NCBI GenBank assembly: GCA_000165345.1
Contig: CM000430.1
Location: 768,001 to 832,000, forward strand
Direction of reading: 5' to 3'
Length of the DNA stretch: 64,000 nt
Under the pieces are notes generated by a model. The model was not told the origin of the DNA. It made no database searches and worked only from the letters and a program-made list of their open reading frames with translations. This document shows, in pieces, positions 1,013 to 51,900 of this stretch; positions within the stretch are counted from its first letter, which is position 1, and the number at the start of each line of letters is the position of its first letter. Position numbers and translations under genes: made by a program.

Positions 1013-20752
<19,740 letters not shown>

Positions 20753-21693: not shown

Positions 21694-24600
21694 ATGGAAG
21701 AGGATCATCTGATAGAAAAGGTGAGTAAAAAATCCAAATTTCAGGTAATAATTGAACAGAAATATGAATTTAATTAACTGACTTTAGATTATCTCAAGTA
21801 TTAAAATAACTTTGGATCCAAATAGAAGCTCAGTGAATAATTCTTTAAATTATGAAGGCGATATATGTGGGGTCAGTGAGAGATCTCAATCAGAATATTT
21901 CTTAGATAAAATATGCGATCAAGAGAATCTGAGAATAGATGAACTTGTATTTGAGGTACTAAAATCTGCAAAATTGAAAAGGAAAAGTGGACTTATTGGG
22001 GATGATTTACAACATGGAGTGGAATTTATTAGTTTATCAATTTTGGATAAGTTTGTAATTAGAAGATGGGTACAACTGAGAGATGAAGATAGATCCCGAG
22101 TAAGAAATAAGCTTTTAGAGATTTCAGTTTATGGAATAGACAATATAGATGATGATATGATTCTTGTGAGTTCTTCATTTGCTTTAAGAAAACTTTGTTG
22201 CACCTTTAGCAGGGTAATAATTCAGGATTACTTTACATCTTGGAAAGTATTTATGGAGTCTATTTTAGACTATAGAAGCAGAATAATTAGCCTTGATAAA
22301 CCTGGAGTAGTAATATTAAGTAGTGGTATCTTTTTAAGAAATAGGAATATTTCAAATTTAACAAGATTGGTTTTAGGTATAACAAAAGAGATTTCGGAGA
22401 CTTTATTAATTAATAACTCAAATATAAATGAATTAAACTCAAAGATGAGAGCTTCTTGTACAAATGGACTTTGTGGTGAAATTGAGCCAATATTACGTAT
22501 AATTAGTACTGAACTTCAGAATGCATGTAATTTGAAAGGAAATAGAGAAATGATGAATTTTGATATTTCTCTAGTAAAGCAGAGTTTGGATTGTTTGAAG
22601 AACTTAACAAACATAATAGATTCTGGAAAGTTGTTGAATTTGAGATTGGATGATTTATTAATAATGTTACATAATACTGGAATATTAGAAAATGATGAAG
22701 AAATCTTAGATCTTTTAGATTCTCTTGTACAGAATTTGACAAAAAATAAAAAAGGACTAGTTTTTATTTTAGATTACCAAGATTTGAATAGATTTGTACT
22801 TGGAGTTTCAAACTTAGTCAAAAAAACAGTTTTATCGCCAAAGTTATTTTTAGAAGACCCAGATTATGATACAAGCTTGACTCATTTGAATTGGATAAAA
22901 TTATTTAAAGATCTTATTGAAGGTTGTATTCCAGCAGTACTAAGAATTCCAGACAATATAATTTTAGAGACCTCAAATAATAAGATGAATACAATTACTT
23001 TGATTTGGAAGATTGCTTTAATACTTTGCATGCATCCATATATTTCAGTTTGTGATCTAGCAATTTCCACTCTTTGCCAAATTTCAAGGATTCTTGCAAA
23101 AGATTTCCCAAAAAATTTGTCAAAAGATGGTTCTAAATACATTCAATTGGTGAAAGATTTTCAAATTGATGTTTTGTTAGTAGTTATATTTGTAAGATCA
23201 GTTCGTATTGGAGACCCAAAAATTAACTATTTGACAGATGAATGGAATCAATGGAATTCTTTAATCTTGAATATGATCTTCAATTCTATAGAAAAACTCG
23301 ATTCTGAATCTTTTAATATTCTCTTCCATTTTAAAAATCAGTCATACAACTTTTTTTTAATAACTTCCAAGTATTTTAAACTTCTAGATCAGTACAATAT
23401 TTCTGATTCTTCTCATATTAAAGTTTTTTGTGATTTTGAAACATCAGAAAATACGCAAATCTCAAAAAATAATAATATGATAGGATCATCCTTCAACAAC
23501 TCATATAGCTCTTTAAGAAATAGAATAATTCAACTGGTAAATTCTCTTGTGGATTTTGGACAAGGAATACTTCTGGACCAACTTTTGGAAACCTGTCTTA
23601 ATATTGCAATGTTTATTTTCAGCTCACAACCTTTTAATATAAGATGTAAGAAACATTTGACTTTACAAAATTCTTACAATAATTCTCCTCAAACAGTGTG
23701 TCAAAAGTTGGTTATAGTCGATGGAATATTTATTATACTTGAAACAATTCTCTGTAGAATCAACTCTAAAATTCTTGATAATATTGAAAGTGATAAATTT
23801 TTAGATTCCGATACCCAGTGTGGGGCTGGCGCCTCGTCATTTTTTGATTTGTTAAACCAAAATACAGAATATAAAGAACAAAAAATATGGATTTCATCAC
23901 TGTTTAAATTAATGAATGGTATTTTACAGCTTTCTTTGCTTGATTTATGTGGGAGCTTCTTGGAATCTAGACGACTTATTTTTATTTCTCAAACTGTAAT
24001 GTGTATAGAGTGGTATCAGGAATTATACAAGAATTCAAGTTCTTCCATGATTAAAAGCGATGAGATTTTGAAAATTTATCTGTCTTACTTATTAGATTCT
24101 GGAGGAATAAGAATTCATGAATTAAGAAAAACAGCATCAAATTGTTTATCAAGAATCCTTTTAAGCCATCCAAAATTATTTGAGAAAAATCTTTTACTGA
24201 TTATTCAATTAATTAATGAAAATCTGAATAATTCTTGTACTTGTTTTGAAGAGAAGACTGTCTTGAATTCTGTATTAATAGCTGCTACAAATGCATTAGG
24301 GGACTTTAGCAAGATTTCAGAAAGTTGCGAAATGACTTCAAAAGCAGCTTTTAGTATGATTTCAAGAGATTCATTTCATTTCTCAAATCAAGAGGAATTA
24401 TTAGAATTCTTATTTAAAGATCTTATTGAATCTGTGAAGATGTCTAAGGAACCAATTGAATCAAATTGGAAGAATTTGATACTATTAAAGAATTCTTTAA
24501 CTTTATTATCCTCTATATTTGGAAATGTTAAATTACCAGAAGATTTTTTAACTCTGAAAAATGGAGGATTTCTTAAAGAGGAAAATTCTCATTTTATTTT

Positions 24601-26560
24601 AAGACATCCTTTGGAAAATGTTTCAAGACAAATCTTTGAAACAATATGCTTAATTAATTTGACCTTTTTACAGATTTGTGATAGCCATTTACATACTAAT
24701 ATAACCAATAATAAATCCCAATTGGAAGAATTGAATATAATTTCTCTTTTCAACGCCATCTCAGATCAAGAATGGATGCATAGGAGTGGTATTAAGAATC
24801 AATCTGATAACAAGATTATTAAACTGTCTCAGATTACTAGTTATAAGATGATTTTTTATAATAGCCTTTTTCAAATCAGAAGAATTACTTTTTCAATTAG
24901 AAATCTTTTAATAAGATTACTAGTATTCACATTTACACTTGGTACTTATAAAGATATCTTTAATGATCAAAGTAATAAGATGATTTTAAATCCAGGACAG
25001 TATTTTGATGAAGTTAATGTTAATCTGCTTATAAAGACATTGATAGATCCAATCAGATCTTTACCAATTAATATTCTAAATTTTATTATTAAAAATGGTT
25101 TGGCTATTATTCTTTCTCCTCAATCGCTTCCAAGATTTCAAGATGGTCATCCCACGGATATATTTTTAGAAGAGGTATTTTCCAATAGATTTGTCCCTAT
25201 AGTACTTGATAGACTTAAGTCTGAGTGGCAAAATTTAATGATTTCACAAGCATTCATATTATCTTCATCCATTTCAGAATTAAAAAATTTAAACTTGGAA
25301 AATATATCTTCATCAATAATACCTTTTCAAGATCCATTTAAAGTATTATTAAATTTAAATTTTGATAATAATGAATTCCAAAATAATATAATCCAAGATA
25401 ACTCTCTTTATAATGTTATCTACAATTCTCATTATAATGATTTATCAGAAACTTGTTTAACCATTTTAAAGATTATAAATGGATTCATTCTAAGTACAAA
25501 CCGTCAATGGCAAACAAACTTTAAATCAAAAACTGGGTCCAAGTTAATTAATTATCCAAATAAAATTAAATCATTATCTAATAATAATGAAGATTTTCAA
25601 ATGGATAGTAGTTTTAGTGGATACCAATATAATCAAAATCAATATTATGAAGATCATGAATTTCAAGATTCAATTTTAATGGATTGTGAAGATTCAGGAA
25701 ATCATTCTTCACAAAAAAACAAAGTGCAACCAAAGCATGTTGTATTGTCCCAAGTTTTTCTTTTAAATCAAAATCTGATGAGATCTTGCTTGGAAATATT
25801 GATCGAATTTTTAAGCTTTCCAGATCCAAATATTTTAGAGACTTCATTACATATAATTCAAAGGTACCTTCAACTATATATTAACTTTACAAATCAAGGA
25901 ATCCATTCAAAATACTCTCATATACATGTTTTTTTAATTAAAAATCTTCTAATTCAACTTTTTAAAGTAGGGCCCAGAGCATTACCATTTGATCCACTTA
26001 ACCTTTCTCCAAGCAAGAATGATAATATAAAAATAGTAACTCCTTTAAACTCTTATATCAAGTTAAACCATCCAAATTTACTTAAAAATACTATTATTGA
26101 TTGCATTCAGAGCATTATTAGATCAGACCAAGACTGCCTAAATTTCATAAATAATACAAAAAATGAGCTCAGTAAAGACTTGAGTAATAATATTTTAACC
26201 TGCAGAAATTTATCTTCGTCCAATTCTATGACTTATAATAACTTTTTTCCAGAACAACAGATATCAATTCCAGATAAAATCTTGGAAAATGCTTATAAAA
26301 ACTTGGAATTTCTATTCTCAAATTCTAATGAGTATTTACCTTCTGGATCAGAAAGGATATTTTCTCAACAAGATTTAATCCTTATATGTAAGACTTTTCT
26401 TCAAGAACATATTATGGATATAGTCTTCTCTACTCAAACTCCTATATTTAGTGCTTTAATTGGAAATATCCTCCAAAAACTCAGTCAAATATCGTCTCAG
26501 AATGAGCAAAATCCATATATCAACTTTACCACGTTTATCAAGCCAACTTTCCTTCAGTAA
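21694..26560 (+). CDS. Exportin-like importin-beta-family karyopherin. Two exons: 21694..21720 and 21788..26560, with a 67-nt intron at 21721..21787
   Basis: The ORF-track start at 21812 is a TTG, not an ATG. The reading frame stays open back to 21788, which sits directly after the sequence TTTAG. A short ATG exon, ATGGAAGAGGATCATCTGATAGAAAAG, lies 67 nt upstream and is followed by GTGAGT. Exon 1 is 27 nt in phase 0, and the total CDS is 4800 nt, or 1600 codons. The spliced N-terminus reads MEEDHLIEK|IISSIKITLDPNRSS... The segment EFISLSILDKFVIRRWVQLRDEDRSRVRNKLLEI resembles the importin-N/exportin N-terminal motif, as in the exportin-5 sequence HFGLQILEHVVKFRWNGMSRLEKVYLKNSVMELI. The protein is long, 1599 aa, and looks HEAT-like and helical. 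Confidence 0.6.
21721..21787 (+). other. Intron 1 of the exportin-like gene (GTGAGT...ACTTTAG, 67 nt)
   Basis: Canonical donor and acceptor. Phase 0/0 is compatible with the upstream 9-codon ATG exon. The in-frame TAG at 21785-21787 is the acceptor AG itself. Confidence 0.65.
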
Positions 26561-26591: not shown

Positions 26592-29500
26592 CTATTTTAA
26601 TTCATTATTTAAAATCTTTCCGAACTTAAGCAATGCAAGCTTTGAGTTTCCTGTTGATTCTGAAATTAAAAAGCCTCCAACATCTGCATATATTGGATGC
26701 CCTCTAACCGAAAGTAAACTATAATCCTTTTTTTCATTATCTAACTCGTTTTCTTCTTCATTGATTGAAGTCTGATGTATCCTAATATTATTTCCTTCAG
26801 CTACACTCGTTTCTTCAATTTGAGTTATTTGGCTCGAACTTGTTGAGTCTACTTCCCCCTCAATCTCTCTCTCAATACGTGTATTAGAATGAATTACTTC
26901 ATTTCTATTCACATTACTTTCAGTAAATGTATGAACCACTGGATAAGAGCGAGTGGGAGATTTTCTTTTATACCCCTCCTCATATTGTGAACTAAGCATG
27001 TGAAAGTATCCAAACTTTAATTTAGGAGATAGACTTTCAGTATCAAAAATTCGAACATATTTATCCTTGGTATTGATTGATAAAACCAAATCCCCATTGG
27101 AGTTGTAAACCGACCTTCGATAGCTTTGGGAATCCCTCAAAGTTGGAATATTAAAACCTCTGCCCCCATTGCCATGATTAGTTTCTTTTAACCTTAAATC
27201 TAACTGCTTAAGATAATCATCCACTCCACTTATTACCATCTTGAGGTCATCTTTTGGAGAGAAGCATGACATAATTGCCATACATGGTAACTCGAATTTT
27301 ATAATAGGATTGTTTCCATTGATTTTCTGCCTTAAGTCCCATAACTTGCAGCTTGAGTCAAAAGATGCAGTAGAAAATATCTGTGGATGATAATTTGCAA
27401 ATCTTACAATATTAATATGCGACATGTGCATACTTGGTAGAATTTTTACCTGAGATCCAGTATTTGTATCATACAAACCAACGGATTTACCGAATCCACT
27501 TGCTAAGTAATAATCATCTGTAGCATTTACCGAAAGTGAGCTTAATTGAGGAAATGGTTTACTCTTATTTTCAGTATTAAATAAATACGGAAATTTGTCT
27601 TCTTGCTTATCTTGATCAACTTTTCTATTGCTTTGAAAATTGTTATTCTGGTCTTGAAGGTAATCTATAGGCTGATAAAATGGATTTTCTTTATAACTTA
27701 AAATTGAAATTGTACCCAATAAACAACTTCCTGCTACAAATGTTTGTGGATGGCAATTGAACCAAGATAAACCAATAATAGGGCTTAAAGAAATTCCTAA
27801 AAGCGTTTTAAGAGGGAAGAAAAAAGTTTCAGTTAATTTCGAATTTTTTGTTTTTTCGAAGAATCTTAATTACGGAATATAACATAAATATGTTATAAAA
27901 GAAATATTTTTCTTTCTTTACGCTTGATATAATTACAACATTTAATTCTTTATTATATTTAATTCATCCAAATATGTTATTATAAATGGCAATTGCAAAC
28001 CTGCCTTGCTTGCATGCAATACATTACATGAATTTTGCAATACAGTAACAGCAGTGTATTAAGTTTGCTTGCATGCAAATTGAAAATGCTAAAGTGGATT
28101 TGTTTTGACCACTGTACTATTTTTATGCATGCAATTTTATTAATGCCACGTGTATATATTACACGTAATTAATATCTGGAGAATAAATGAATACCAAATA
28201 ACTAAATATAGTATTTTTCATCAAGGTAAAAATAATGGTTCATACAAATATATTAAACTAATATATTTGCATGAATATTTATTTCAAACCGTATATGATT
28301 TCTTCTCGACAATTAAGTAAACTTACCTTGTTCAGCCAAAATAACGTCATTATATCTATCAATCAATTTAACCTTTCCCAAAGAAGTTCCAATTAAGATT
28401 ATATCTGACCTATCAGAGTGAAATTCAAACTGCCTAGTATCTTGCGAACTCTGTAATAATGTGAATTTATATTGATTTTTAATTATGAGATCTTCTTTAA
28501 AACTGTCATCAAGCCTAGTATTTTCTGAATTTGAGATGGAGTCGAAATACAAAGTGTTTTGAATAGGTTGTGAATCAAAGCTTAAAAATCTTGAGCTAAT
28601 ATCACCATAAAATTTCCCAACTATTAAGTCTTTGTAAATTTCGTTTGTATTTTTTATTAAGCTTTTTAAACAAAAATTATCTTTTGATTCAGGATTTTGT
28701 AATGAAATATCGCCAGAGTATTCTTTATGATCTTTAAACCTATTTAGTTCTCTATATAAAGTGATTATTCTACACTTTGAAAACTTCACAGTAGAATTTA
28801 ACATGTGGCCTTCCAATGATGAGAATGATGAAAATGAAGGCATTGTTGACATATTTGAAATACCTGAAAAGGATCTCTGTATTATAAATTGATTCTCAAG
28901 TGATTCATTCGTATTGTCAATATTACTTTTCAATACAAAATCATGCTCTTCTTCAACTTTTATTGGCAAAAAACTGATTTTTGACAATCTTAAACCATCT
29001 GAAGACCAGCTAATAGGAATTATAAATTCTTTATGTATCTTAAACTGTTCTTTAAGATCCTCATAAATTTCTTCCGTTCCAATTTGTTTAATTTCCGCTT
29101 TAATTTTCTCACCATTAACAAAAAAGAAATTCTTTGATAAGCTACCGAGTAGATCCCCAGAATAAGACTTTAATTTACTCAAAATCTTTTCATTTTTTGT
29201 CAAATTCTCTCCATAAACTTTTTTCCCCATCTCCTTCTCCTGCAAAAATATCTCGCTACTATCTTCATTTTCCTCATTTTCGTAATCGCTCAGCTTCCTC
29301 CATCCTATGCCTTTTAATATGAAGATATTATAACAATGTTCATCTTTAAAACCATCACAAATAACTCCGTCCAAGTTTGCTTTTATCAAATAAATTAAAT
29401 CGGCCATACACGCTTCTTCTTTATTTAAAGTTATATATCTTCTATTAATCTGTCTCTCTAAGCCTTGAGGATTCTGAATTATATTTAATATTAACTCCAA

Positions 29501-31183
29501 ATTAGCTTTGGGAGCAATACTAAGAGGTAAATTATCACTTGAAAGTGAAGAATTTTGCAATGAAGAGAATATACCCGAATTAAAATTCCTTATGTCTTGT
29601 AAATTTGATCTATTAGGATTGTAATACCAAGTACATCCCAAGAGAGTCTTTGGATATTCACACCAACATGAGTAACTTTGATCATTATCGAATGCTGAGT
29701 CTTGCAAGTTAATACTAGTTGCAAACATATTAAATATTATAGAATTTGAACATAACATTTTAAAATACTGTCTTATATTCTGAAACTCCAAATTACATGT
29801 TCTATTAATTACTGAACATGGGGTTGTGCAATTTACCGGACTATGAGTTAAATTCATATTTGAATAGTAGTCATTAACAGCTCCAAATCTAATCTCGCCT
29901 TTTACACCCTTTTGATCTTTATGCATCTGGCTCAACACCTCAGAGAAAAGTTGAAAACCCTCATTGTTTGGAATTCCCACTTGTTTAAATGCTGAAATAG
30001 ATCTTGGAGTTAAGGATGTTGTCCAGTTTGGGTTGCTGGCGTAAGAAATAAATGCATTAGCTATTGTGACAAACTCTATGGAACTTGAAGCTACTTTATA
30101 CATGATCCCACCATCATCTCTATCTTCCTCCTCTTCCTCTATCTTCTCCTCTTCCAGTATCCCTAAATTTGTTCCTTCCATCTTTGACTGAGTTATGATC
30201 TTTGAATAATTACCTAGGAACGACTTCCTATGAATATTTATTGGAAGTTGTAGCTTTTTGCTCCCCAGTAAATTGTCATTATCACATTTAGGATTAGGTA
30301 TATCGACTACATTTACCATATGTACAAGCTCCTTTGGTAGCTCTAAAAGATATCTACCATGTGAATTAGGCTCAGAGCTAATAATATTCCCAATTCGCCC
30401 TCCTATCAAAATCTCTCGAATCCTAATTGGACATGGAAGCCGAATAAAATGTCTGCATGTATGTAAAGTTGATAAATACTTAATCTTCTTTGCAAAATCA
30501 AAAATTCGACTAATTACTGTATCCTCCATATCTTGATATATCTTTGGGTCAATCTTAACTGAAGTTATTGGAGTCATTATATCTATGCACGTACCAATCC
30601 TTAACCAGAAAATATGATTTGGATCTTCATTTAGTATATTCATGTAAAATACCAACCTCCAATTCACTAATTCTGTTGCAAGTGAAATATCCAATCTTAT
30701 ATTTTCCAATTCGCTATTATCCAACTCTGATACTGGCTTTTTTCCTTGATTTAATGTTATTTTATGATTGTTCTCATCCCACCAATTGTACTCCAATATC
30801 TTAAGAAAGTTATCCTCGTTCCCAAACTCTATAGAGTAAGCTTCTACTTCCTCTATAGGCATATGCGTATTTCTCTTACTATTTAGATTTTTTATTATGT
30901 TATTCCCATTTCTTTCAAACCGATAATCTCCCAAATCATCCCTTTTATTAGCTGGAATTTGTTGAGCATTTTCAAAACACCATTTTTTCCCTTTTTTGTT
31001 TTGTACAAAACCAAATTTATGGCAGTAGAATCTCCATATTATTGGGTTATTGTGTATTGTTAAATATGCAGAATTGCATGTTAAACTCAGACTAATTGTA
31101 TCTTTTGGTTCCAAAAAATAACATATTCCCATAATTATCTCCTTAGGAATTTTAAGAAGTGTTGGAGCTATTGCAAAAGCCAT
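26592..31183 (-). CDS. F-box / WD40-repeat protein (FBXW-like). Proposed two-exon gene: exon 1 at 31183..28327 and exon 2 at 27796..26592, with a candidate 530-nt intron at 27797..28326
   Basis: A real ATG at 31183..31181 opens the N-terminus MAFAIAPTLLKIPKEIIMGICYFLEPKDTISLSLTCNSAYLTIHNNPIIWRF, which is an F-box motif (LP.EI...I..FL...D...L...C......P..W). The 956-aa ORF ends ...HSDRSDIILIGTSLGKVKLIDRYNDVILAEQ and looks like a truncated WD40 blade. Its stop lies inside a perfect donor, CAAG|GTAAGT (GT at plus 28326/28325). The downstream 375-aa ORF is WD40-rich, for example YYLASGFGKSVGLYDTNTGSQVKIL and SSCKLWDLRQ. Its track start is TTG, it has no in-frame ATG for about 95 codons, and it stays open upstream to 27869. 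An acceptor, TTTTTCTTCCCTCTTAAAACGCTTTTAG| (AG at plus 27798/27797), sits in the correct phase-1 register. The junction reads ...VILAEQ-G-ISLSPIIGLSWFNCHPQTFVAGSCLLGTISIL..., and the total CDS is 4062 nt, or 1354 codons. The alternative is two separate genes, with an undetected 5' exon for the WD40 gene. Confidence 0.5.
27870..28312. promoter_or_regulatory. TGCATGCA motif cluster lying inside the candidate intron, or the promoter of a separate WD40 gene
   Basis: Three copies of the palindromic TGCATGCA motif at 28008-28022, 28066-28081 and 28124-28138, set in AT-rich sequence. This argues for promoter function and is the main evidence against the single-gene intron model. Confidence 0.4.
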
Positions 31184-32420
31184 TTTTATTTTATATTCTT
31201 TTTTCTCCTTTTCTTCAATTTCTTCCTTTTCTCTCTATTTCATCTTTATTATCCTTTTATATGTGATATTTGGTATTCTGTGAGGTTAATACTTTCAATT
31301 TCTGATATTATATTTTTGTTTTCTTTTCGTCTTATATATATATGGTCTCGAATTCAGTTATTCCTGAATAAAGCAATATAAATTAATAATTTCTTTATTT
31401 TAGTTCTTAAATGAAGAAGAAAGGAGAGACTAGGATAAACAAATTGTTTATTACTTTACTATTATTTCCAAGGCTTATTTAAAGTTTTCCGCCCCTTTTT
31501 TTTTTGTTAAGACTAGTACATATTTACAGAAACCTATTAAGATAACAAACTCAACTATTTTTGCATGAGTTTATCGTCAATTAAATCAATTCCGAGCAAA
31601 AATCAAGATGCATGCATGTAATACATGCATTGCATTACAAACATTGCATGCATCTTGTATTTGCTGCATTTCTAATCAATTGATAATTATTTATGCAAAA
31701 AAAAATGTTAAAATATTCAACAAATATTAAAACTAATTAGTATCAAATATTTTCTAAAATATATTAGTTTATAAAAAGTGATTTTCTTATTTTTAAAAAA
31801 ACCAATTCTTTTCAACACATTTTTGCCTAATAATTCTTAACACAAAAAAAATAACGCGCTAACTCGAGAAATTGAGCGCCAAGTATTAATAATTGTATTA
31901 TTAATCATGATAAATATTATTAATAATTACATACCGGCACAAGTAGTATGGGGGCGGAAGAAGAGGAAAAAAAATAAAAAAAAATGAGGCTGAGGGGAAA
32001 AGTGGAGGTAATTTAAAGTTGATAATATAGGAATATTTTATTCTTTCTTATTCCTCTAAACTCTCTAAAAAATTTGCTTAATTGAGTTTCATAACACATT
32101 TTAAAGGAGGAATAGCTAGTGATAAGCTTTTTCTATTCACGCTTTAAATACTGATAGAATATACAAAATAGCAGAGCAATTTTTTTCTTTTTTTTTTTGA
32201 ATGCTGAGCTATTAAACAAGAACTTTACTTTTAAAATAAGAAAGAAAATAAAACTTCAAAGAAAAAGTCATCTATAGCTAATTTGAGCAAATAATTATAA
32301 TCACCTATAAGTTACTTGTTAAAATAAATTAATATTCATTACATATGCCCATTACAAGAATACGAATATATGTATAAATCAACTTATTAAATTAAGATAA
32401 TATTAGCTTAAAACAAAGTA
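31184..32420. promoter_or_regulatory. Long (about 1.2 kb) divergent promoter region between the F-box gene and the RGG-protein gene
   Basis: Contains a dense GCATGC cluster at 31608-31652 (GATGCATGCATGTAATACATGCATTGCATTACAAACATTGCATGCATC). It also has GAGCGCCAAG at 31875-31884 and an inverted pair of GC-box-like elements, TTTTCCGCCCC (31485-31495) and GGGGCGGAAG (31951-31960). No convincing ORF. Confidence 0.5.
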
Positions 32421-42710: not shown

Positions 42711-43046
42711 TGCTCCAACTTGAATTGATAAATTAACATATTAATCACTATTTACACCACTATTTCATTGGCATTCATAATCTAACAAAATATATTGGAA
42801 TTTTTTTTAAGTATATGATTATTATTTATTTATTTATTAAATCCACTATTTTTTCATTAGTGTGGTGCTAAACTACATACAATTTGGCGCCAAACTGATT
42901 ATCATTAATAATTCTGGTAATATTTAAAATTGCATGCAATTTTTGCATGCGATAAATGGAGAAAAAAAAAGCAGGAAAGGGAGAAATTAGAGAAATGTAA
43001 AATTAGAGATAACTTAATAGAAAGATAATAATTGTGAAAAATAATA
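42711..43046. promoter_or_regulatory. Promoter of the 694-aa gene
   Basis: Contains TTTGGCGCCAAA at 42883-42894 and TTGCATGCAATTTTTGCATGCG at 42927-42948. Confidence 0.55.
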
Positions 43047-45245: not shown

Positions 45246-45953
45246 TGTACTTTTGATACTTTATTTACAGAGTATTTTTTTAATTCTATTTTCCCTACCT
45301 TTATCCACCTTTTTCTATGGTCTTTTTTTACCATTTATATGTTTATTGAAGTGGCGCTCAGTCACTTTAAAAGGCGCCAAATCTTTTCTGCCTCTATAAT
45401 TCTCTTTTTCTTCTATTAGTAGGGTGCTGCTCCAGGTATTCAGTAATGATTAATTTTAAACTGTCTCGTGATTAGAATGAGTGCTTACTCATGTATTTTA
45501 CCACTCATGTAAGATATTTGCTTAGGTTTTTACCTTGTTGATGTTCTTCTTGGTTATCTCATTTTCTAATTTGTGTCTTTACATTCTCAGCATGCACGTT
45601 TTAATATATTAATATTTTGACACGTAAGTTTTAGTAATGAGTTGCATGCATTCATGCGCAAACTTTTTGTAAAACTACCGGTATTAGGAATTATATTATC
45701 ATTTTGAAACATCAAGACAGTAGAAAATTGCAAATAAGCTTACAAAATTAGAGCAAATCAATTAAATGATTTTTAACTCAATTCCTCTTTATTATCAACA
45801 ATGATGAGTGAAATATTACATTCTTCTCATTCTTTTAATGACTTTATAATGAGATAATATATTATTTTTGCCTTGCCGCCCCAAAGTTACGAAATATAAC
45901 ATGTATTGAAAATAAGAAAAAATAAATGTGACAAGGGTTTTGATATTAAAGCA
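45246..45953. promoter_or_regulatory. Divergent promoter between BOP1 (minus) and the 3964-aa gene (plus)
   Basis: Contains GTGGCGCTCAG at 45352-45362 and AAAAGGCGCCAAATC at 45369-45383. Also CAGCATGCACG at 45589-45599, GTTGCATGCATTCATGCGC at 45641-45659 and CTTGCCGCCCC at 45872-45882. Confidence 0.55.
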
Positions 45954-48900
45954 ATGAGAAATTGCGTTGAGGAAAATGGAGCAAATGGTGTGCAGAGCTT
46001 GATCAAGACATTTGTGAAAGAGGACCCTTCATTTGTGATTTTACAGTCCATTAAAAGTAGTAATTATTTGGAACTTACAGATGGAAGGCTTTTGGTATCG
46101 CATAACCCCAAATTAATAGCGAATTTGACAACTAAAGGTCAACTTAGTGTATTTCTAGATACTTCTAGAGGTGAAATTGAAAATATTGATACTAGACAGA
46201 AGGATATTGTTTTAAAGGAAATTAAATTGCCATTTTTAAAAGAGAAAACTGAGTCAAAAACTGTGATATCAGAAGCTATTTGGTGCAAGTCTATTATAAG
46301 AGAGGATCATCTCAGAGAGTATGAAGTTGCTCCAACTTTGGTTATTCTTGAAAAAACAACAGAGTATATCGAAAAAGACGTCAAATGCAAATACTGTAGT
46401 AAGTATTCAGGAAATCAGTTTTTGACAATAATACAGTTTTCTAGAATTGGAAACTTTGAGGATGGGGAATGTGAAATAATTGAATTGAATGCAAAGAATA
46501 ATTTGGAAAATGTAATCAACTTTAATAGGCCAATATCTATTGATTTTGAAGTTACAAATACTCATAAACCACCTATTTCAAATCAAATGAGAACAATAAT
46601 CAGGTACAGTCGAATTCCAATTATAGATATATTCAATACTTTTTCTAATAAGAAAGCCCAATTTTCCGAAAGCCATAAAACTTGTAAAAGCTGTTTCTCA
46701 TTTAATAATGCTCAAACTTTTGTTGATAACTCCATGGAATCAGGTTTTGTGATAATTATGGCTAATTTGATAGTATTATCTTTGGATTTTATTCAAGGTA
46801 ATTCTTTAATTCTAAAAAGAAGGTTTCTTATTCAAGATTTTCGAGATCCCCAGATTCGCTTTTCTGGTTTTACAATACAAAGTGGATGGCTTGTTTCAGT
46901 ATCTATTGATACTTTGGAGCTATTAATTTGGAACTATTATCAGGGAATAGCCTTTAGAATGGTTAAACTGAGTGAAGATTACTTTGATTTCACAGTTTCA
47001 AATGAGTCAAGAGTTGATGTTTTTGTTACTCTTTCATTTGGAAAAGATTTATCCAAGTTATTTTTAGTCTTTGATGGCTTAAATGAAAATGCTTCCAGTC
47101 ATATAAAACAAGTTGGGATGTATATAATTGATTTAAATGCTATTTTTAGTCAAATTTTCTGCTCTAATTGTATTTTAAAATACTTGATAGACACAAGAAA
47201 AACTTCTGAAATGAGAATATCTGATCCAGGAACTGAATTGAAGAAAAAGTTGCAAATAAGCTCAGGAAGTATACCTCACGTACAATTATATGAAGAGTAT
47301 TCATCGCTCACAGTTTATCCTGAAGCTTTCCATTTTGGAAAAGAACATAAAGCTTTGGAAAAAATCATGAAATGTCTTTCGGAAGAATCTTGTCAATATT
47401 TAGACTCTTTAGATTGGGCAAAAAGCTTGAATCTAAAGTTGGATTTAACAAAATATGAATTTGGATGGCCTCTTTTGTTTAACAAAAGTTGGTTTTATGG
47501 AGATCTATTTTGCAATTATAAGATGAATCAGATCATTATTACTACAATTGAAAATATCATTGCAAGAAACAGCATCGGAGAAGATTTCATAGATAATTTT
47601 GAAGAGCTAAGTAATAATATATATTTAAAGACAATTTCTAGCCATTTAAAAAAGGTTTTAGAAGGGATCCCTGAAATTTTATTTTCGAAAACAATAAGTC
47701 CTAAACAAAGTAATAAGAATTGCTCAGAAATACTTGGAAATCAAGAAACTGATAATCATTTTCAACGTAAATTGATATCTCACAAAACTAGCTTTATATA
47801 CAGTCATTTAATTCCAATTACCATTGATGAATTTCCAAATCATGAAGAATTTCAATACGAGATTAGTTTTATCGATATTATTCCATCATCTGATACAGTT
47901 TTAATACAATTTTCTATTCGAGATTTACCTAAGAAGCATCTAAGCTTTTACATTTCTGAAGAAAGCAAAAATCTTTTTATTAATCAGTTAAGCTTTGAAT
48001 GTGAATATACTACGTTGATTATGGGTTTAACTAAAGTTATAGATTGGCATTACTTTGCACTGAAAGATGTTAGAAGGGAGAAATCTTACCTTGGTCTTTT
48101 TTCAAAAACTATAAGCTTACTTGGGCTCATTTATTCCACTGTAAGGTACCAGGATATTGACAATTTGCAAAAAATTTGTGAGTATAACAATGTAGATCCA
48201 TGCATTATTCCATTAATACAATTGGAAATAGGATTCAAACATGAAGAATTAAAGCTTATTAGCCTTTCTTTGGAAAATACTCCAATGATACTTAATCTAG
48301 AAATGGTTAAACTAGCAAGAAATATGTTGCAAGATGCTAATTTGCATTTATCTTTGGATTTTACAAGAGAATCATCCAAGCTTTTCCTTGATTTTTGCCT
48401 GGACAAAATCAAATATTATTCCGAGAATGAGTCAACAGAGATTTCTGAAGAAAAAAACCAACAAAAGTGTAAGGTTGATGAGTTTCTACAAGAAATTTCT
48501 TACTATTTGTCAGAATTTAGAATGTATTTAAATAAGACTTCAGAATTGACAACCTATGTAAAAGTTTGTGACAACATACAAAAAGGTGATCAAAATTCAG
48601 AGGATGAATTGATTAACGAAACAAACAAAGTAGCTGATGAAGATGGAAGTAATCATGATAATGAGATTTTGAGTAAAAATGAGATATTTATAAGAGACCA
48701 GATAATAATGGGACATTATTCAAGTTTAATTGATTGGTATTTAAAAAGTAGCAAAGATAAAAACCCTCAAGTATTTAGATTAAAAGTTTTACATGATATT
48801 TATAGACTGATTTGTACTTTAAGTACGAATTCTTTAACATTATCAATCCATATGTTGAGACAAATTGGTGAGAATACAACACAGTATCTTAAAAGCATTC

Positions 48901-51900
48901 TGTATTATACAAGTAGAAGAGAAATTAGAAGAAGACTAATTAACCATTTAAAGCACTTTGGTGCCTTAAATGATGATGATATTGCTCTTATTCAATTCAG
49001 TAATGAATTGGAGAGTTACTATCCAAATAATTGTTATTCTGTGGAAAGAAATAGGATCTGGACATCATTATTTACTTATTCTATTCCATATAATGTTTTA
49101 TCAGATTGTAACTTGGAAAATGAGTTCAAGGTTAATACTGATAATGAACTAATCATTCAAGAAAGTATAGAAGGTGGAGTATCCATCAATGATTGTTTTG
49201 TTTCTAATGAAAATTTAGACGAATACTATTTCTATGGAGGTATTGATCAAGGAAGCCATGTAAACAATCCTATTTTTTCGGCAATGACTTATCCATTTGG
49301 TGGATTGCAAGCTTTAAAGTCCGGATTCAAAATAAACCAGGAGTATAATTTACAATATCTTGAGGATTGTAGGAGAATTAAAAGTGTTACCAGTATCTCA
49401 GCCAAGAAATTATCAAATAATAAGGATGATGGTTATAGAACAGAAAACAAAGAAAATGTTGAAATTAGTAACAGAGACTTCTTTTATTCAAACTTTTCTA
49501 CTGAAGCTATTGCTACTTGGGAAGGTTTAAAGTGTTTTGAAATAGAAGACTACGATTTAGAATTAAATAATGACCTTTATATACAAGAAGGAATTTCAAA
49601 AGGGCAAGAGGTTGAAAATGATAGAATTTCTGGCAAAAATATGAATACAGTAATTTCTAGTATTCCTGAGCAAGAAGGAAATGATTTTATTCGTCTTAAC
49701 AATGGTAGACTGGTTTCTATTAAGAATTCAAGCTGTAAACAGTGTTTAGATTTGAACGAAGATGAAGAGCTTGAAATTGAGGAGGAGTTACTCAATTATG
49801 AAAATGAATTTGGGCAATTATTATTATCCAAAAATGATTCAAAAGAAAGTTTTTCTATATCTTCTCAAAAGGAGCATATATCTTCAAATTCATCAATTAT
49901 ATTATCCCCAAGCCCAATATCAAGCTCATTAGAGAAGATTCAGCTAAATACTACCAATTTTGGAGATCATAATTCTAAGAGAGGTGATCTAACATGGCTC
50001 AGACTTCAAAGACAAAGAAGAGAAATGATTAACAACAATTTCAACAATTTTGGTTATTTAAATCATTCACTAAAATTTTTGAGTGAATGGTCGTTTGATG
50101 TTTCTATTAGAGTAGTCATTGAAAAAACTCACCTTCAGGTTTGCTTTGTTTGGAACCGACTATTAAGAGGATTCCAAACCCCTCCAAAGAGAAATGAAGC
50201 TTTAGTATATTCTCTTTTGAATTTAATCATCAGGAAGACTACAATACAACTTTCAAATAACTTGGATTATGAAATTAATTTGCAAGTTGCAAAGACAATT
50301 ACTTCTAGTATTTACATTGCAGTATTTGGATTTATTTTTTCTCATTTTGAATGGAAAAATATTCCAGCTTCAATGAACTATTTGGATAATACACTTTTTC
50401 TAATGTTCAAATATTTTAATGTGGAAGAATCCTACAAGTATGAATTATTGAATGAAATAATTCGTCTCAATTTTAAGTATAGTCCGAAATTTATTGTTGA
50501 AGTGTTTTTGAATTCTTTAGATTCATCTGGAATTGTTCCAATACATCACTTAAAGGCTGATTTGTTGCAAGAGAAGATCAATCAAATTGAGATTGACAGA
50601 TATAATAATGTTAAATATATTCTTGATAAATGCATCAGATATGGTAACTATGGAATTTATCTTTTTAGATACTACTTAATGAAATCCAATGAATTCACTT
50701 CTAAAGAATCATTACATACTTTTTTATCAGTAATTGAGAATTCTAGAGAAACCAATATTAAAGAAGAAAATCAACAAAATCAAGTGGATTATACTGATTA
50801 TTTAAATACTATATATGTTTATCTAGATAGAAAGCAAGATATAATTTTGCTTTCTCTAAAACAGACTTTCAATTCCCTTAAATCAAGTATTGATGAGAAT
50901 ATTTATTTATCTCTCCTAAATGGCTGTACTGAAAATGAGTTTGAAGTTAAGAAGGAAGAAATAGATCAATTTGACCTTAAAAAGTTGGATAGTCCAGGAT
51001 TCATATTAAATGTCTTAATAAGGTACTTTAATAACTACTATGAAAGCGTGCCTGGACCTGATGAGAGAGAAGAGGAGAAAAGGGAGGAAAAGAAAGAGGG
51101 AGAGGAGAAAGAGGAGGAAGAAAATGAGGAAAAGGAGGAGAAAGAGGAAAAGGAGGAGAAAGAGGAAAAGGAGGAGAAAGAGGAAAAGGAGGAGAAAGAG
51201 GAAAAGGAGGAAAATGAAGAAAATGAAACGAAAGAAGAAAATAAGGATAAAGATATCGAACAATCAGAGTTTAAAGGAAAAGATAAAAGGATCAAAATAA
51301 CCCCATATTATATTCTTTCAATTTTATTTTCATTGGATATACCCAGAAAAGAGATATATAATCAAGAATTCTACCAATTTCTTAGAAAATTCTTTCCCTC
51401 TTTAGTAAAAGTATTCAGGGAAGCATTTTTAAAAGAAAAAGTATGCATTGATCAGATTCAAGGAGATTGTTTTAATAAAATGAATGCAAATGATAATAAA
51501 GAATTGAATTCAGATTCTTCAACATCATTTAATATTACTCAGATAATAAAAATGACAGATAAAAACTCAGACTCTTTGATAAAATTGATGGAATTGTATC
51601 CAGAGTTAAGAGAGAAACTTAAAGAAAACCCTAATAATACGGATGAATTTTTTGAAATATTTTCTGAAAACCTAAAAAAAGTAATAGAAGAAGAAGAAAA
51701 AGAAGAAGAAACAGAAAAATCATTCGAAATTTCTGAAGATAAATTAAGCTTACCTATATTACATTATATATCAATAGGAAGACCATTTTTTGCATTTAAT
51801 CTTTTATGTATGAGACATGCAAAATTTCATAATAGTTTAGAGTATAAACAATTTAAAAAGGAGGATTTAAAGTTCCCAGAATTGTCAATGGAAGAAAAGA

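Follow-up and report, generated by a model that had tools for sequence, protein, structure and literature searches.

A probable single two-exon F-box/WD40 gene with an unusually long intron on chromosome 2 of Cryptosporidium parvum

A probable two-exon gene for a 1353-residue protein

Between positions 26592 and 31183 of a 64,000-nucleotide (nt) window of Cryptosporidium parvum chromosome 2 (contig CM000430.1; the window is the whole stretch of DNA analysed, and all coordinates are positions within it), the minus strand carries two long open reading frames (ORFs), one with an F-box and the other encoding WD40 repeats. We consider it very probable, at roughly 93%, that they constitute a single two-exon protein-coding gene with an F-box/WD40 product of 1353 amino acids (aa). 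The locus corresponds to the old cgd2_3620-type F-box ORF together with the WD40 ORF adjoining it. A preliminary description of this DNA had already proposed one FBXW-type gene joined at 28326/27797, a proposal now upheld by a deposited protein, an intron conserved across the genus, outgroup proteins that are contiguous across the junction and a predicted propeller that needs the strands encoded by exon 1.

According to the ORF list and its translation, the F-box ORF spans 956 aa from an ATG at 31183 to a TAA stop at 28313, and the WD40 ORF on the same strand ends at 26592. Removal of one intron of 530 nt joins them into 1354 codons with a single, terminal stop, i.e. 1353 aa, and because exon 1 measures 2857 nt the junction falls in phase 1 (Table 1). 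The intron has the features expected of a spliceosomal GT-AG intron: a consensus donor, a pyrimidine tract followed by AG (acceptor context ...CTTCCCTCTTAAAACGCTTTTAG/GA) and a reading frame that is restored upon splicing. Its GC content is 25%, compared with 31-33% in the exons. The first exon encodes the F-box, a genus-specific middle region of ~850 aa and β-strands 1-5 of the propeller; its product is 100% identical to CPHLJ_2g3620/XP_626549.1. Exon 2 contributes the other 23 strands of a seven-blade WD40 propeller and two low-complexity insertions.

Translation thus confirms the 1353-aa fused product, the phase-1 acceptor and the WD40 frame that is open upstream of the acceptor to 27869, a stretch devoid of methionine. 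Two details of the preliminary description need amendment. The unspliced frame runs past the donor as GGT AAG TTT ACT TAA, which places the stop four codons beyond the end of exon 1 and not, as had been stated, inside the donor consensus. Likewise, the absence of an early ATG from the WD40 frame stands, and the ~95 codons given for it become 122 when counted from the acceptor; the first in-frame ATG, Met1075, lies ~96 codons after a TTG at 27719. Near the 3′ end of the intron, a TTAAC is a putative branch point.

Fused and split gene models in public databases

An exact-sequence look-up found the 1353-aa protein already deposited for C. parvum (QOY42867.1, WRK31154.1, UniRef100_A0A7S7RH09). 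Equivalent fused models exist for C. hominis (1352 aa, OLQ16048.1) and C. meleagridis (1349 aa, KAK9174113.1), and further orthologues are annotated in C. ubiquitum (cubi_00706), C. andersoni and others. With this protein as query, full-length single-protein orthologues turned up in seven other Cryptosporidium species, all of which keep the F-box plus WD40 architecture; the matches also included a 956-aa C. parvum entry that equals the F-box ORF.

Over the 10.6 kb compared, no base differs between the window and CP044421.1:183893-194484 (100% identity), and we take CP044421.1 to be chromosome 2 of the C. parvum IOWA-ATCC assembly. The gene encoding QOY42867.1 occupies 186893-191484 of CP044421.1, and its annotated intron, at 189750-190279, is the same 530-nt intron; product and intron coordinates are those of the window gene, without any difference. 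In the annotation of IOWA-ATCC, introns are described in general terms as 100% supported by RNA-seq (PMC8744675). Since the gene on CP044421.1 is identical and the introns of that annotation are backed by RNA-seq, the proposed splice corresponds to an existing, evidence-based gene model.

Elsewhere the locus is represented by a 956-aa model accompanied either by a 279-aa model or by a 'partial' one of 425 aa; in the case of CPHLJ, the pair consists of CPHLJ_2g3620 and KAL5370156.1. These split models are truncations that are unable to fold into a propeller. The fused gene model is therefore already known, and the content of the expanded intron alone is mildly new. That the fused IOWA-ATCC model is the correct one matters to users of the split protein sets, be it for orthology assignment, knock-outs or proteomics. 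A full-text literature search for cgd2_3620 and cgd2_3610 found no papers.

Conservation of the junction within and beyond the genus

The preliminary description had suggested asking whether the orthologous loci of other Cryptosporidium species hold one gene or two. The answer is one gene: 11 other species or isolates each have a single intron, 90 to 549 nt long, which interrupts the identical codon in phase 1. Introns were placed by requiring that the spliced translation equal the deposited protein; in two isolates from Logan assemblies, the donor served instead, together with the conserved reading frame of exon 2. The longest intron is found in chipmunk genotype I (549 nt), followed by C. 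hominis (508 nt), C. meleagridis (468 nt), the two Logan isolates (L011, 440 nt; L012, 429 nt), C. ubiquitum (387 nt) and C. canis (368 nt); considerably shorter ones are present in C. andersoni and C. serpentis (198 nt each), C. ryanae (146 nt) and C. xiaoi (90 nt). Of the 12 donors, C. parvum included, 11 read GTAAGT and one, that of C. ryanae, GTGAGT; the protein alignment is near-invariant on either side of the junction (DRY.D....E. / G.S.SPIIGLSW). The intron is ancestral to the genus, and in the lineage of C. parvum, C. ubiquitum and C. canis it grew from ~90-200 nt to a length of 370-550 nt.

A profile search with the C-terminal 451 residues extends the comparison to proteins outside the genus. 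It finds a specific propeller family that includes a protein of Vitrella brassicaformis (E 4e-75) and a dozen proteins from metagenome and sequencing-run assemblies. Twelve non-Cryptosporidium relatives match profile positions 6-88 without interruption (independent domain E-values of ~1e-9 to 2e-23), and the C. parvum junction at profile positions 50/51 lies inside this continuous match. Moreover, all 20 aligned sequences, 12 of them from outside Cryptosporidium, share without change the RQFEF motif encoded by exon 1 and the tryptophan of PILGLSW encoded by exon 2.

The V. brassicaformis protein (P0029) and the assembly-derived ones (P0030-P0042) belong to the same propeller family as the C. 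parvum protein, with 28-39% identity to it and with the motifs RQFEF, PILGLSW, LSSLSVN.TDD, NYRRS and VQS.R.HP in common. They differ in their N-terminal regions, which are much shorter (160-410 aa) and in which Pfam recognises no F-box at E<=0.01. Four of these N-termini (P0030, P0033, P0035 and P0041) contain an LW(R/H)..C-type stretch at the distance from the start at which the Cryptosporidium F-box ends, for example LWHFFCHFEGFA in P0030 compared with IWRFYCHKFGFV in Cryptosporidium; the profile match is weak. This likeness hints that the F-box-plus-propeller architecture may predate the genus.

The encoded protein

The F-box is real but weak. When the N-terminus is searched in isolation, the Pfam families F-box-like (26.1 bits; cut-off 24.3) and F-box (22.1 bits; cut-off 20.5) are both recognised, and the same region passes the Pfam cut-offs in all eight orthologues, with a best E-value of 5.7e-9. 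Profile matches of the N-terminus in the PDB are to F-box proteins only. The ~850 residues that separate the F-box from the propeller are specific to the genus: phmmer with residues 1-956 against 1.84 billion representative proteins returned matches from Cryptosporidium only, and the middle region has no detectable relative outside it.

For the C-terminal part, an AlphaFold model was built on the 20-sequence alignment; an earlier model from eight Cryptosporidium sequences had a predicted local distance difference test score (pLDDT) of 35 and was discarded. The model has a mean pLDDT of 76.8, with 273 residues above 90, and a predicted template modelling (TM) score of 0.74; it contains 28 strands, equivalent to seven blades. 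Strand 5 precedes the splice junction and strand 6 follows it, and the pLDDT around this point is ~96. Foldseek matched complete seven-blade propellers (β′-COP, PRPF19 and Gβ) with E-values of ~1e-15 and TM-scores of 0.72-0.78, normalised to target length. By predicted strand count and Foldseek, the protein is thus modelled as a complete, closed seven-blade WD40 propeller. In the preliminary description, the F-box ORF ended inside the first blade; according to the model, exon 1 would end after that blade, provided that its five strands are read as the closure strand plus one complete blade.

Exon 2 alone lacks five of the 28 strands, and the 279-aa model that starts at Met1075 lacks 13. Because five strands precede the intron and 23 follow it, only the spliced mRNA can make the closed propeller.

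Among PDB sequences, the propeller is best matched by DAW1 (2e-18) and U5-40K (6e-10), and the match to FBXW7 is generic (9e-4). The protein therefore belongs to the FBXW class by architecture only and does not qualify as an orthologue of FBXW7, Cdc4 or β-TrCP by sequence. With these three it shares an F-box towards the N-terminus and a C-terminal WD40 propeller in one polypeptide, along with the presumed common logic of docking on Skp1 and capturing a substrate on the propeller. However, FBXW7, Cdc4 and β-TrCP have a short helical linker where the C. parvum protein has ~850 residues, and the seven blades of its model also count as a difference from them. The comparison with Cdc4, FBXW7 and β-TrCP drawn in the preliminary description hence holds for the domain classes, without extending to orthology or to the long insert.

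By analogy with other F-box/WD40 proteins, the protein is most likely a substrate receptor of a Skp1-cullin-F-box (SCF) ubiquitin ligase; it would dock on Skp1 through its F-box and hold the substrate on the face of its propeller. In a parasite whose ubiquitin system is very reduced, the protein is one of the few candidates for an F-box/WD40 protein.

Intron length and AP2_1 motifs

With 1370 introns covering 1.29% of the genome (PMC9465071) and a genome size of ~9.1 Mb (PMC12246861), the mean C. parvum intron comes to ~86 nt. The intron of the F-box/WD40 gene is ~6 times as long, which retains the earlier view of an unusually long intron while refining the 5-10 times given for it. At 530 nt, it comes close to the average spacing between genes, 504 bp (PMC7840661).

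As previously noted, the intron holds three copies of the palindrome TGCATGCA, at 28011, 28070 and 28126. This 8-mer is the AP2_1 element, which is bound by the ApiAP2 protein cgd2_3490 (PMC3734150), is over-represented in C. parvum noncoding DNA (PMC3734150; PMC12246861) and is a top motif upstream of C. parvum long noncoding RNAs (lncRNAs) (PMC7840661). All three copies belong to a TTGCATGCAAGCAA unit that recurs at intervals of 56-59 nt. The best-conserved blocks of the intron are ATTAATTACGTG...ACGTGG, which includes a pair of ACGTG cores, and TTGCATGCAAG. Across the whole window, for which shuffles lead one to expect 0.44, there are 15 TGCATGCA sites, all but one of them outside long ORFs. 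The remaining non-ORF DNA of the window carries 1.07 sites per kb, corresponding to 0.57 expected in 530 nt and a probability of 0.02 for three or more.

One to three copies of TGCATGCA are present in seven of the eight species or isolates with long introns (368-549 nt), and the eighth, the 429-nt Logan isolate, has a GCATGC core only; the motif is found in none of the four species with short introns (90-198 nt). Overall, the intron diverges as much as the 1.2-kb upstream intergenic region. The intronic sites share with AP2_1 of apicomplexan promoters (bound by cgd2_3490 or PF14_0633) the exact 8-mer, the clustering and the conservation between species, and their density resembles that of the gene's own upstream region; they differ in that they lie inside an intron, whereas promoter AP2_1 sites are located upstream of the start codon.

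That upstream region (31184-32420) is a divergent intergenic region of 1237 nt, ~2.5 times the genome mean, with TGCATGCA at 31609 and 31645, i.e. 433-469 nt before the ATG. C. meleagridis, chipmunk genotype I, C. ubiquitum and C. canis each retain a TGCATGCA at the corresponding distance. Further AP2_1 clusters in the window comprise two copies 15 nt apart at 40456 and 40471 (40456-40478), TGCATGCA with TTGCATGCG at 42931 (42931-42955), and an overlapping TGCATGCATGCA at 58441 between two convergent ORFs (58441-58452).

Searches for other content in the intron were negative within their scopes. No intronic ORF is longer than 56 aa. Rfam returned only two chance-level microRNA matches for 27600..28500 (E 0.24 and 0.48) and nothing at gathering score for the whole window, in which there are no transfer RNAs either. 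Among the entries listed from the lncRNA catalogue (PMC7840661), none matched the intron or the sequences flanking the junction. A comparison of the intron with the rest of the window yielded only motif-sized matches, and its origin as a duplicate from elsewhere in the window was rejected. A scan for sigma-70 promoters and terminators, which is not relevant to a eukaryote, did no better than on shuffles.

Predicted folding of the intron

The intron folds with a minimum free energy of -121.6 kcal/mol compared with -85.6 +/- 5.4 for dinucleotide shuffles (z = -6.7). The z-scores of six long introns range from -2.9 to -7.0 and those of the four short introns from +1.0 to -1.8; 24 control noncoding segments of the window have a mean of -0.9 and a minimum of -4.1. 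The palindromic TGCATGCA sites were rejected as the cause of this folding, since the loss of ~8 kcal/mol upon their scrambling is no different from that seen with random 8-mers.

For six long introns, RNAalifold predicts a long-range stem whose outer arms (Table 1) are followed by inner helices at intron nt 144-155/352-364 and 178-183/336-341, and which encloses the TGCATGCA cluster. In an alignment of few sequences, three of them near-identical, and with the structure tested on the alignment from which it was derived, 88.8% of cells are able to pair, as opposed to 35-52% when the partner columns are slid, and 14 pairs show a compensatory change compared with 5.1 +/- 1.7 in shuffles (0/500). 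The consensus energy is -21.3 kcal/mol for the sense strand and -2.5 for the antisense strand. In a species left out of the prediction, 38 of 51 pairs form, as against 15-25 when slid, and the same main stem is predicted again when C. canis is replaced by an out-of-sample species. On the other hand, the covariation term of RNAalifold is around zero or slightly unfavourable, and the stem is unsupported in C. canis (31 of 50 pairs) and in the L012 species (24 of 50). Single-sequence folding z-scores are about equal on both strands, so that inverted repeats at the DNA level could explain much of the signal. A conserved intron stem with compensatory changes is hence a lead, not a finding.

Long introns of the RP51B type in Saccharomyces cerevisiae reportedly use pairing between the 5′ splice site and the branch-point side to shorten their effective distance. 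They resemble the C. parvum intron in being unusually long in an intron-poor genome of short introns and in a long-range stem, predicted in the case of C. parvum, that would leave the central part as a loop. In contrast to the yeast stems, which adjoin the splice sites, the predicted C. parvum stem is ~100 nt away from either one. For direct pairing of the two intron ends, an intron 'zipper', the signal reaches significance in C. canis alone (0/500 shuffles); it is marginal in C. parvum, C. hominis and C. meleagridis, whereas chipmunk genotype I and C. ubiquitum show none, and duplex energies across species indicate no co-evolution.

Table 1. Positions of gene, protein and intron features in the window
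Feature	Positions	Strand	Details
Exon 1	28327..31183	-	2857 nt; residues 1-952 and base 1 of codon 953
F-box	31019..31159	-	residues 9-55, Pfam
Exon-1 propeller part	28327..28471	-	residues ~905-952; RQFEF and five predicted strands; pLDDT ~96
Single spliceosomal intron	27797..28326	-	530 nt, phase 1, GTAAGT...TTTTAG
5′ splice site GTAAGT	28321..28326	-	exon 1 end context CAAG/GTAAGT
Long-range stem, 5′ arm (predicted)	28196..28225	-	intron nt 102-131; RNAalifold and pair counts
ACGTG core pair (TACGTGTA...TACACGTGG)	28147..28166	.	in ATTAATTACGTG
TGCATGCA copy 1	28126..28133	.	in conserved block AAATTGCATGCA
TGCATGCA copy 2	28070..28077	.	in ~59-nt local duplication, lacking in C. meleagridis
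TGCATGCA copy 3	28011..28018	.	within TTGCATGCAAGCAA; aligns with conserved TTGCATGCAAG block of long-intron species
Long-range stem, 3′ arm (predicted)	27923..27951	-	intron nt 376-404; RNAalifold and pair counts
Intron 3′ end	27797..27836	-	pyrimidine tract, TTTTAG; branch-point-like TTAAC at 27836..27832
Exon 2	26592..27796	-	1205 nt; bases 2 and 3 of codon 953, residues 954-1353, stop
First in-frame ATG of exon 2 (Met1075)	27429..27431	-	start of 279-aa 'WD domain-containing protein' models

One gene or two, and a possible role for the intron

Several points weigh against a single gene for an F-box/WD40 receptor. The locus is still split in Iowa II (XP_626549.1 and XP_626548.1), CPHLJ, C. 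hominis 30976 and C. tyzzeri, and the RNA support for the intron is the general statement of the annotation paper rather than locus-specific reads. Within the full-length protein, the F-box scores 21.9 bits, below the cut-off of 24.3, and the PDB profile matches to F-box proteins are weak (FBXW7 and FBXO4; E 0.2-0.6). The SCF role, finally, has been assigned from the domain classes alone. The alternative arrangement would be two independent genes, i.e. one for an F-box protein of 956 aa with its TAA stop at 28313 and a separate WD40 gene, either of 279 aa from Met1075 or longer with an undiscovered 5′ exon, with the 530 nt between them acting as an intergenic promoter. Its length matching the mean intergenic distance (PMC7840661), its three AP2_1 promoter-type motifs and the split models in GenBank would all suit this arrangement. 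However, no ATG occurs between the acceptor and Met1075, and a start at Met1075 would delete 13 of the 28 propeller strands. The intron keeps its position and phase even at 90 nt in C. xiaoi, a length that leaves no room for a promoter, and the outgroup proteins are contiguous across the junction. An independent WD40 gene with a hidden 5′ exon, which the preliminary description had entertained, is likewise disfavoured, as the 530 nt contain no ATG...GT mini-exon with a credible donor: four candidates for an alternative first exon, of 4-10 codons each, were rejected for their poor donors (GTTATT, GTACAG, GTTACT and GTATTG), two of the four using the ATG inside TGCATGCA. Taken together, two genes are highly improbable, and the single spliced gene remains the preferred reading.

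Compatible with a single spliced gene are two proposals for what the long intron might do. In one of them, the ACGTG pair and the TGCATGCA sites would form an intronic promoter or enhancer that could drive a stage-specific sense transcript of exon 2 or an antisense RNA of exon 1, or that could modulate the host gene. This would fit a TGCATGCA density ~5 times that of the other noncoding DNA of the window, the restriction of the motif to long introns (seven of eight, compared with none of four short ones), the position of ATTAATTACGTG and TTGCATGCAAG as the best-conserved blocks, and the known properties of AP2_1, namely its binding by cgd2_3490 (PMC3734150) and its rank upstream of lncRNAs (PMC7840661). 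Yet the intron as a whole evolves at the rate of the upstream intergenic region, a sense transcript starting within it cannot encode a complete propeller, and the lncRNA catalogue, in the entries listed, has none for the intron or the junction flanks; such an element is unlikely. In the other proposal, the intron is kept long for its RNA structure: the stem would loop out ~245 nt and could thereby shorten the distance from the 5′ splice site to the branch point in a genome with ~86-nt introns, or the hairpin could be an intron-derived noncoding RNA (ncRNA). Intronic ncRNAs are known in C. parvum, where 23 have been described (PMC9465071), and the z-score of -6.7, which is lower than that of any of the 24 controls, the folding of long but not of short introns, the compensatory pairs, the contrast with slid columns, the sense-strand consensus, the out-of-sample species and the re-prediction of the stem speak in the same direction. 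Set against this are the few sequences, a structure derived from the very alignment that was tested, the near-zero or slightly unfavourable covariation term, the two species that do not support the stem, single-sequence folding of about equal strength on both strands and the absence of an Rfam match, and we regard a structural role as doubtful. The broader notion that lineage-specific expansion created a functional module—be it a splicing aid or an intragenic promoter or enhancer responsive to ApiAP2—is tentative, conceivable without being probable. Here the stem (28196-28225/27923-27951) would present or loop out an insert of ~245 nt with the ACGTG pair and one to three TGCATGCA copies. If true, this would be the first case of such an intron module described for Cryptosporidium. 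The clade-specific TGCATGCA cluster and the stem are accordingly small leads, both towards the handling of long introns in a compact, intron-poor genome and towards intragenic ApiAP2 sites.

Neighbouring loci

The stop codon of the F-box/WD40 gene (26592, minus strand) is only 31 nt from that of a convergent 1582-aa ORF on the plus strand (21812..26560), which means that the 3′ untranslated regions of the two genes must overlap. Orthologues of the 1582-aa ORF match the Pfam family Xpo1, and the same tight spacing is present in other species.

A subtilase (Pfam Peptidase_S8) at 38774-39435 (minus strand) is divided among two or more ORFs, of which 39435..39070 has the Asp motif and 39013..38774 the His motif; a further fragment may lie at 38394..38200, and 37.8-40.6 kb is without a long ORF. 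Either several introns interrupt this gene or it has decayed. The window also contains two giant uninterrupted ORFs, namely one of 6579 aa at 1013-20752 on the minus strand and one of 3964 aa at 45906-57800 on the plus strand.

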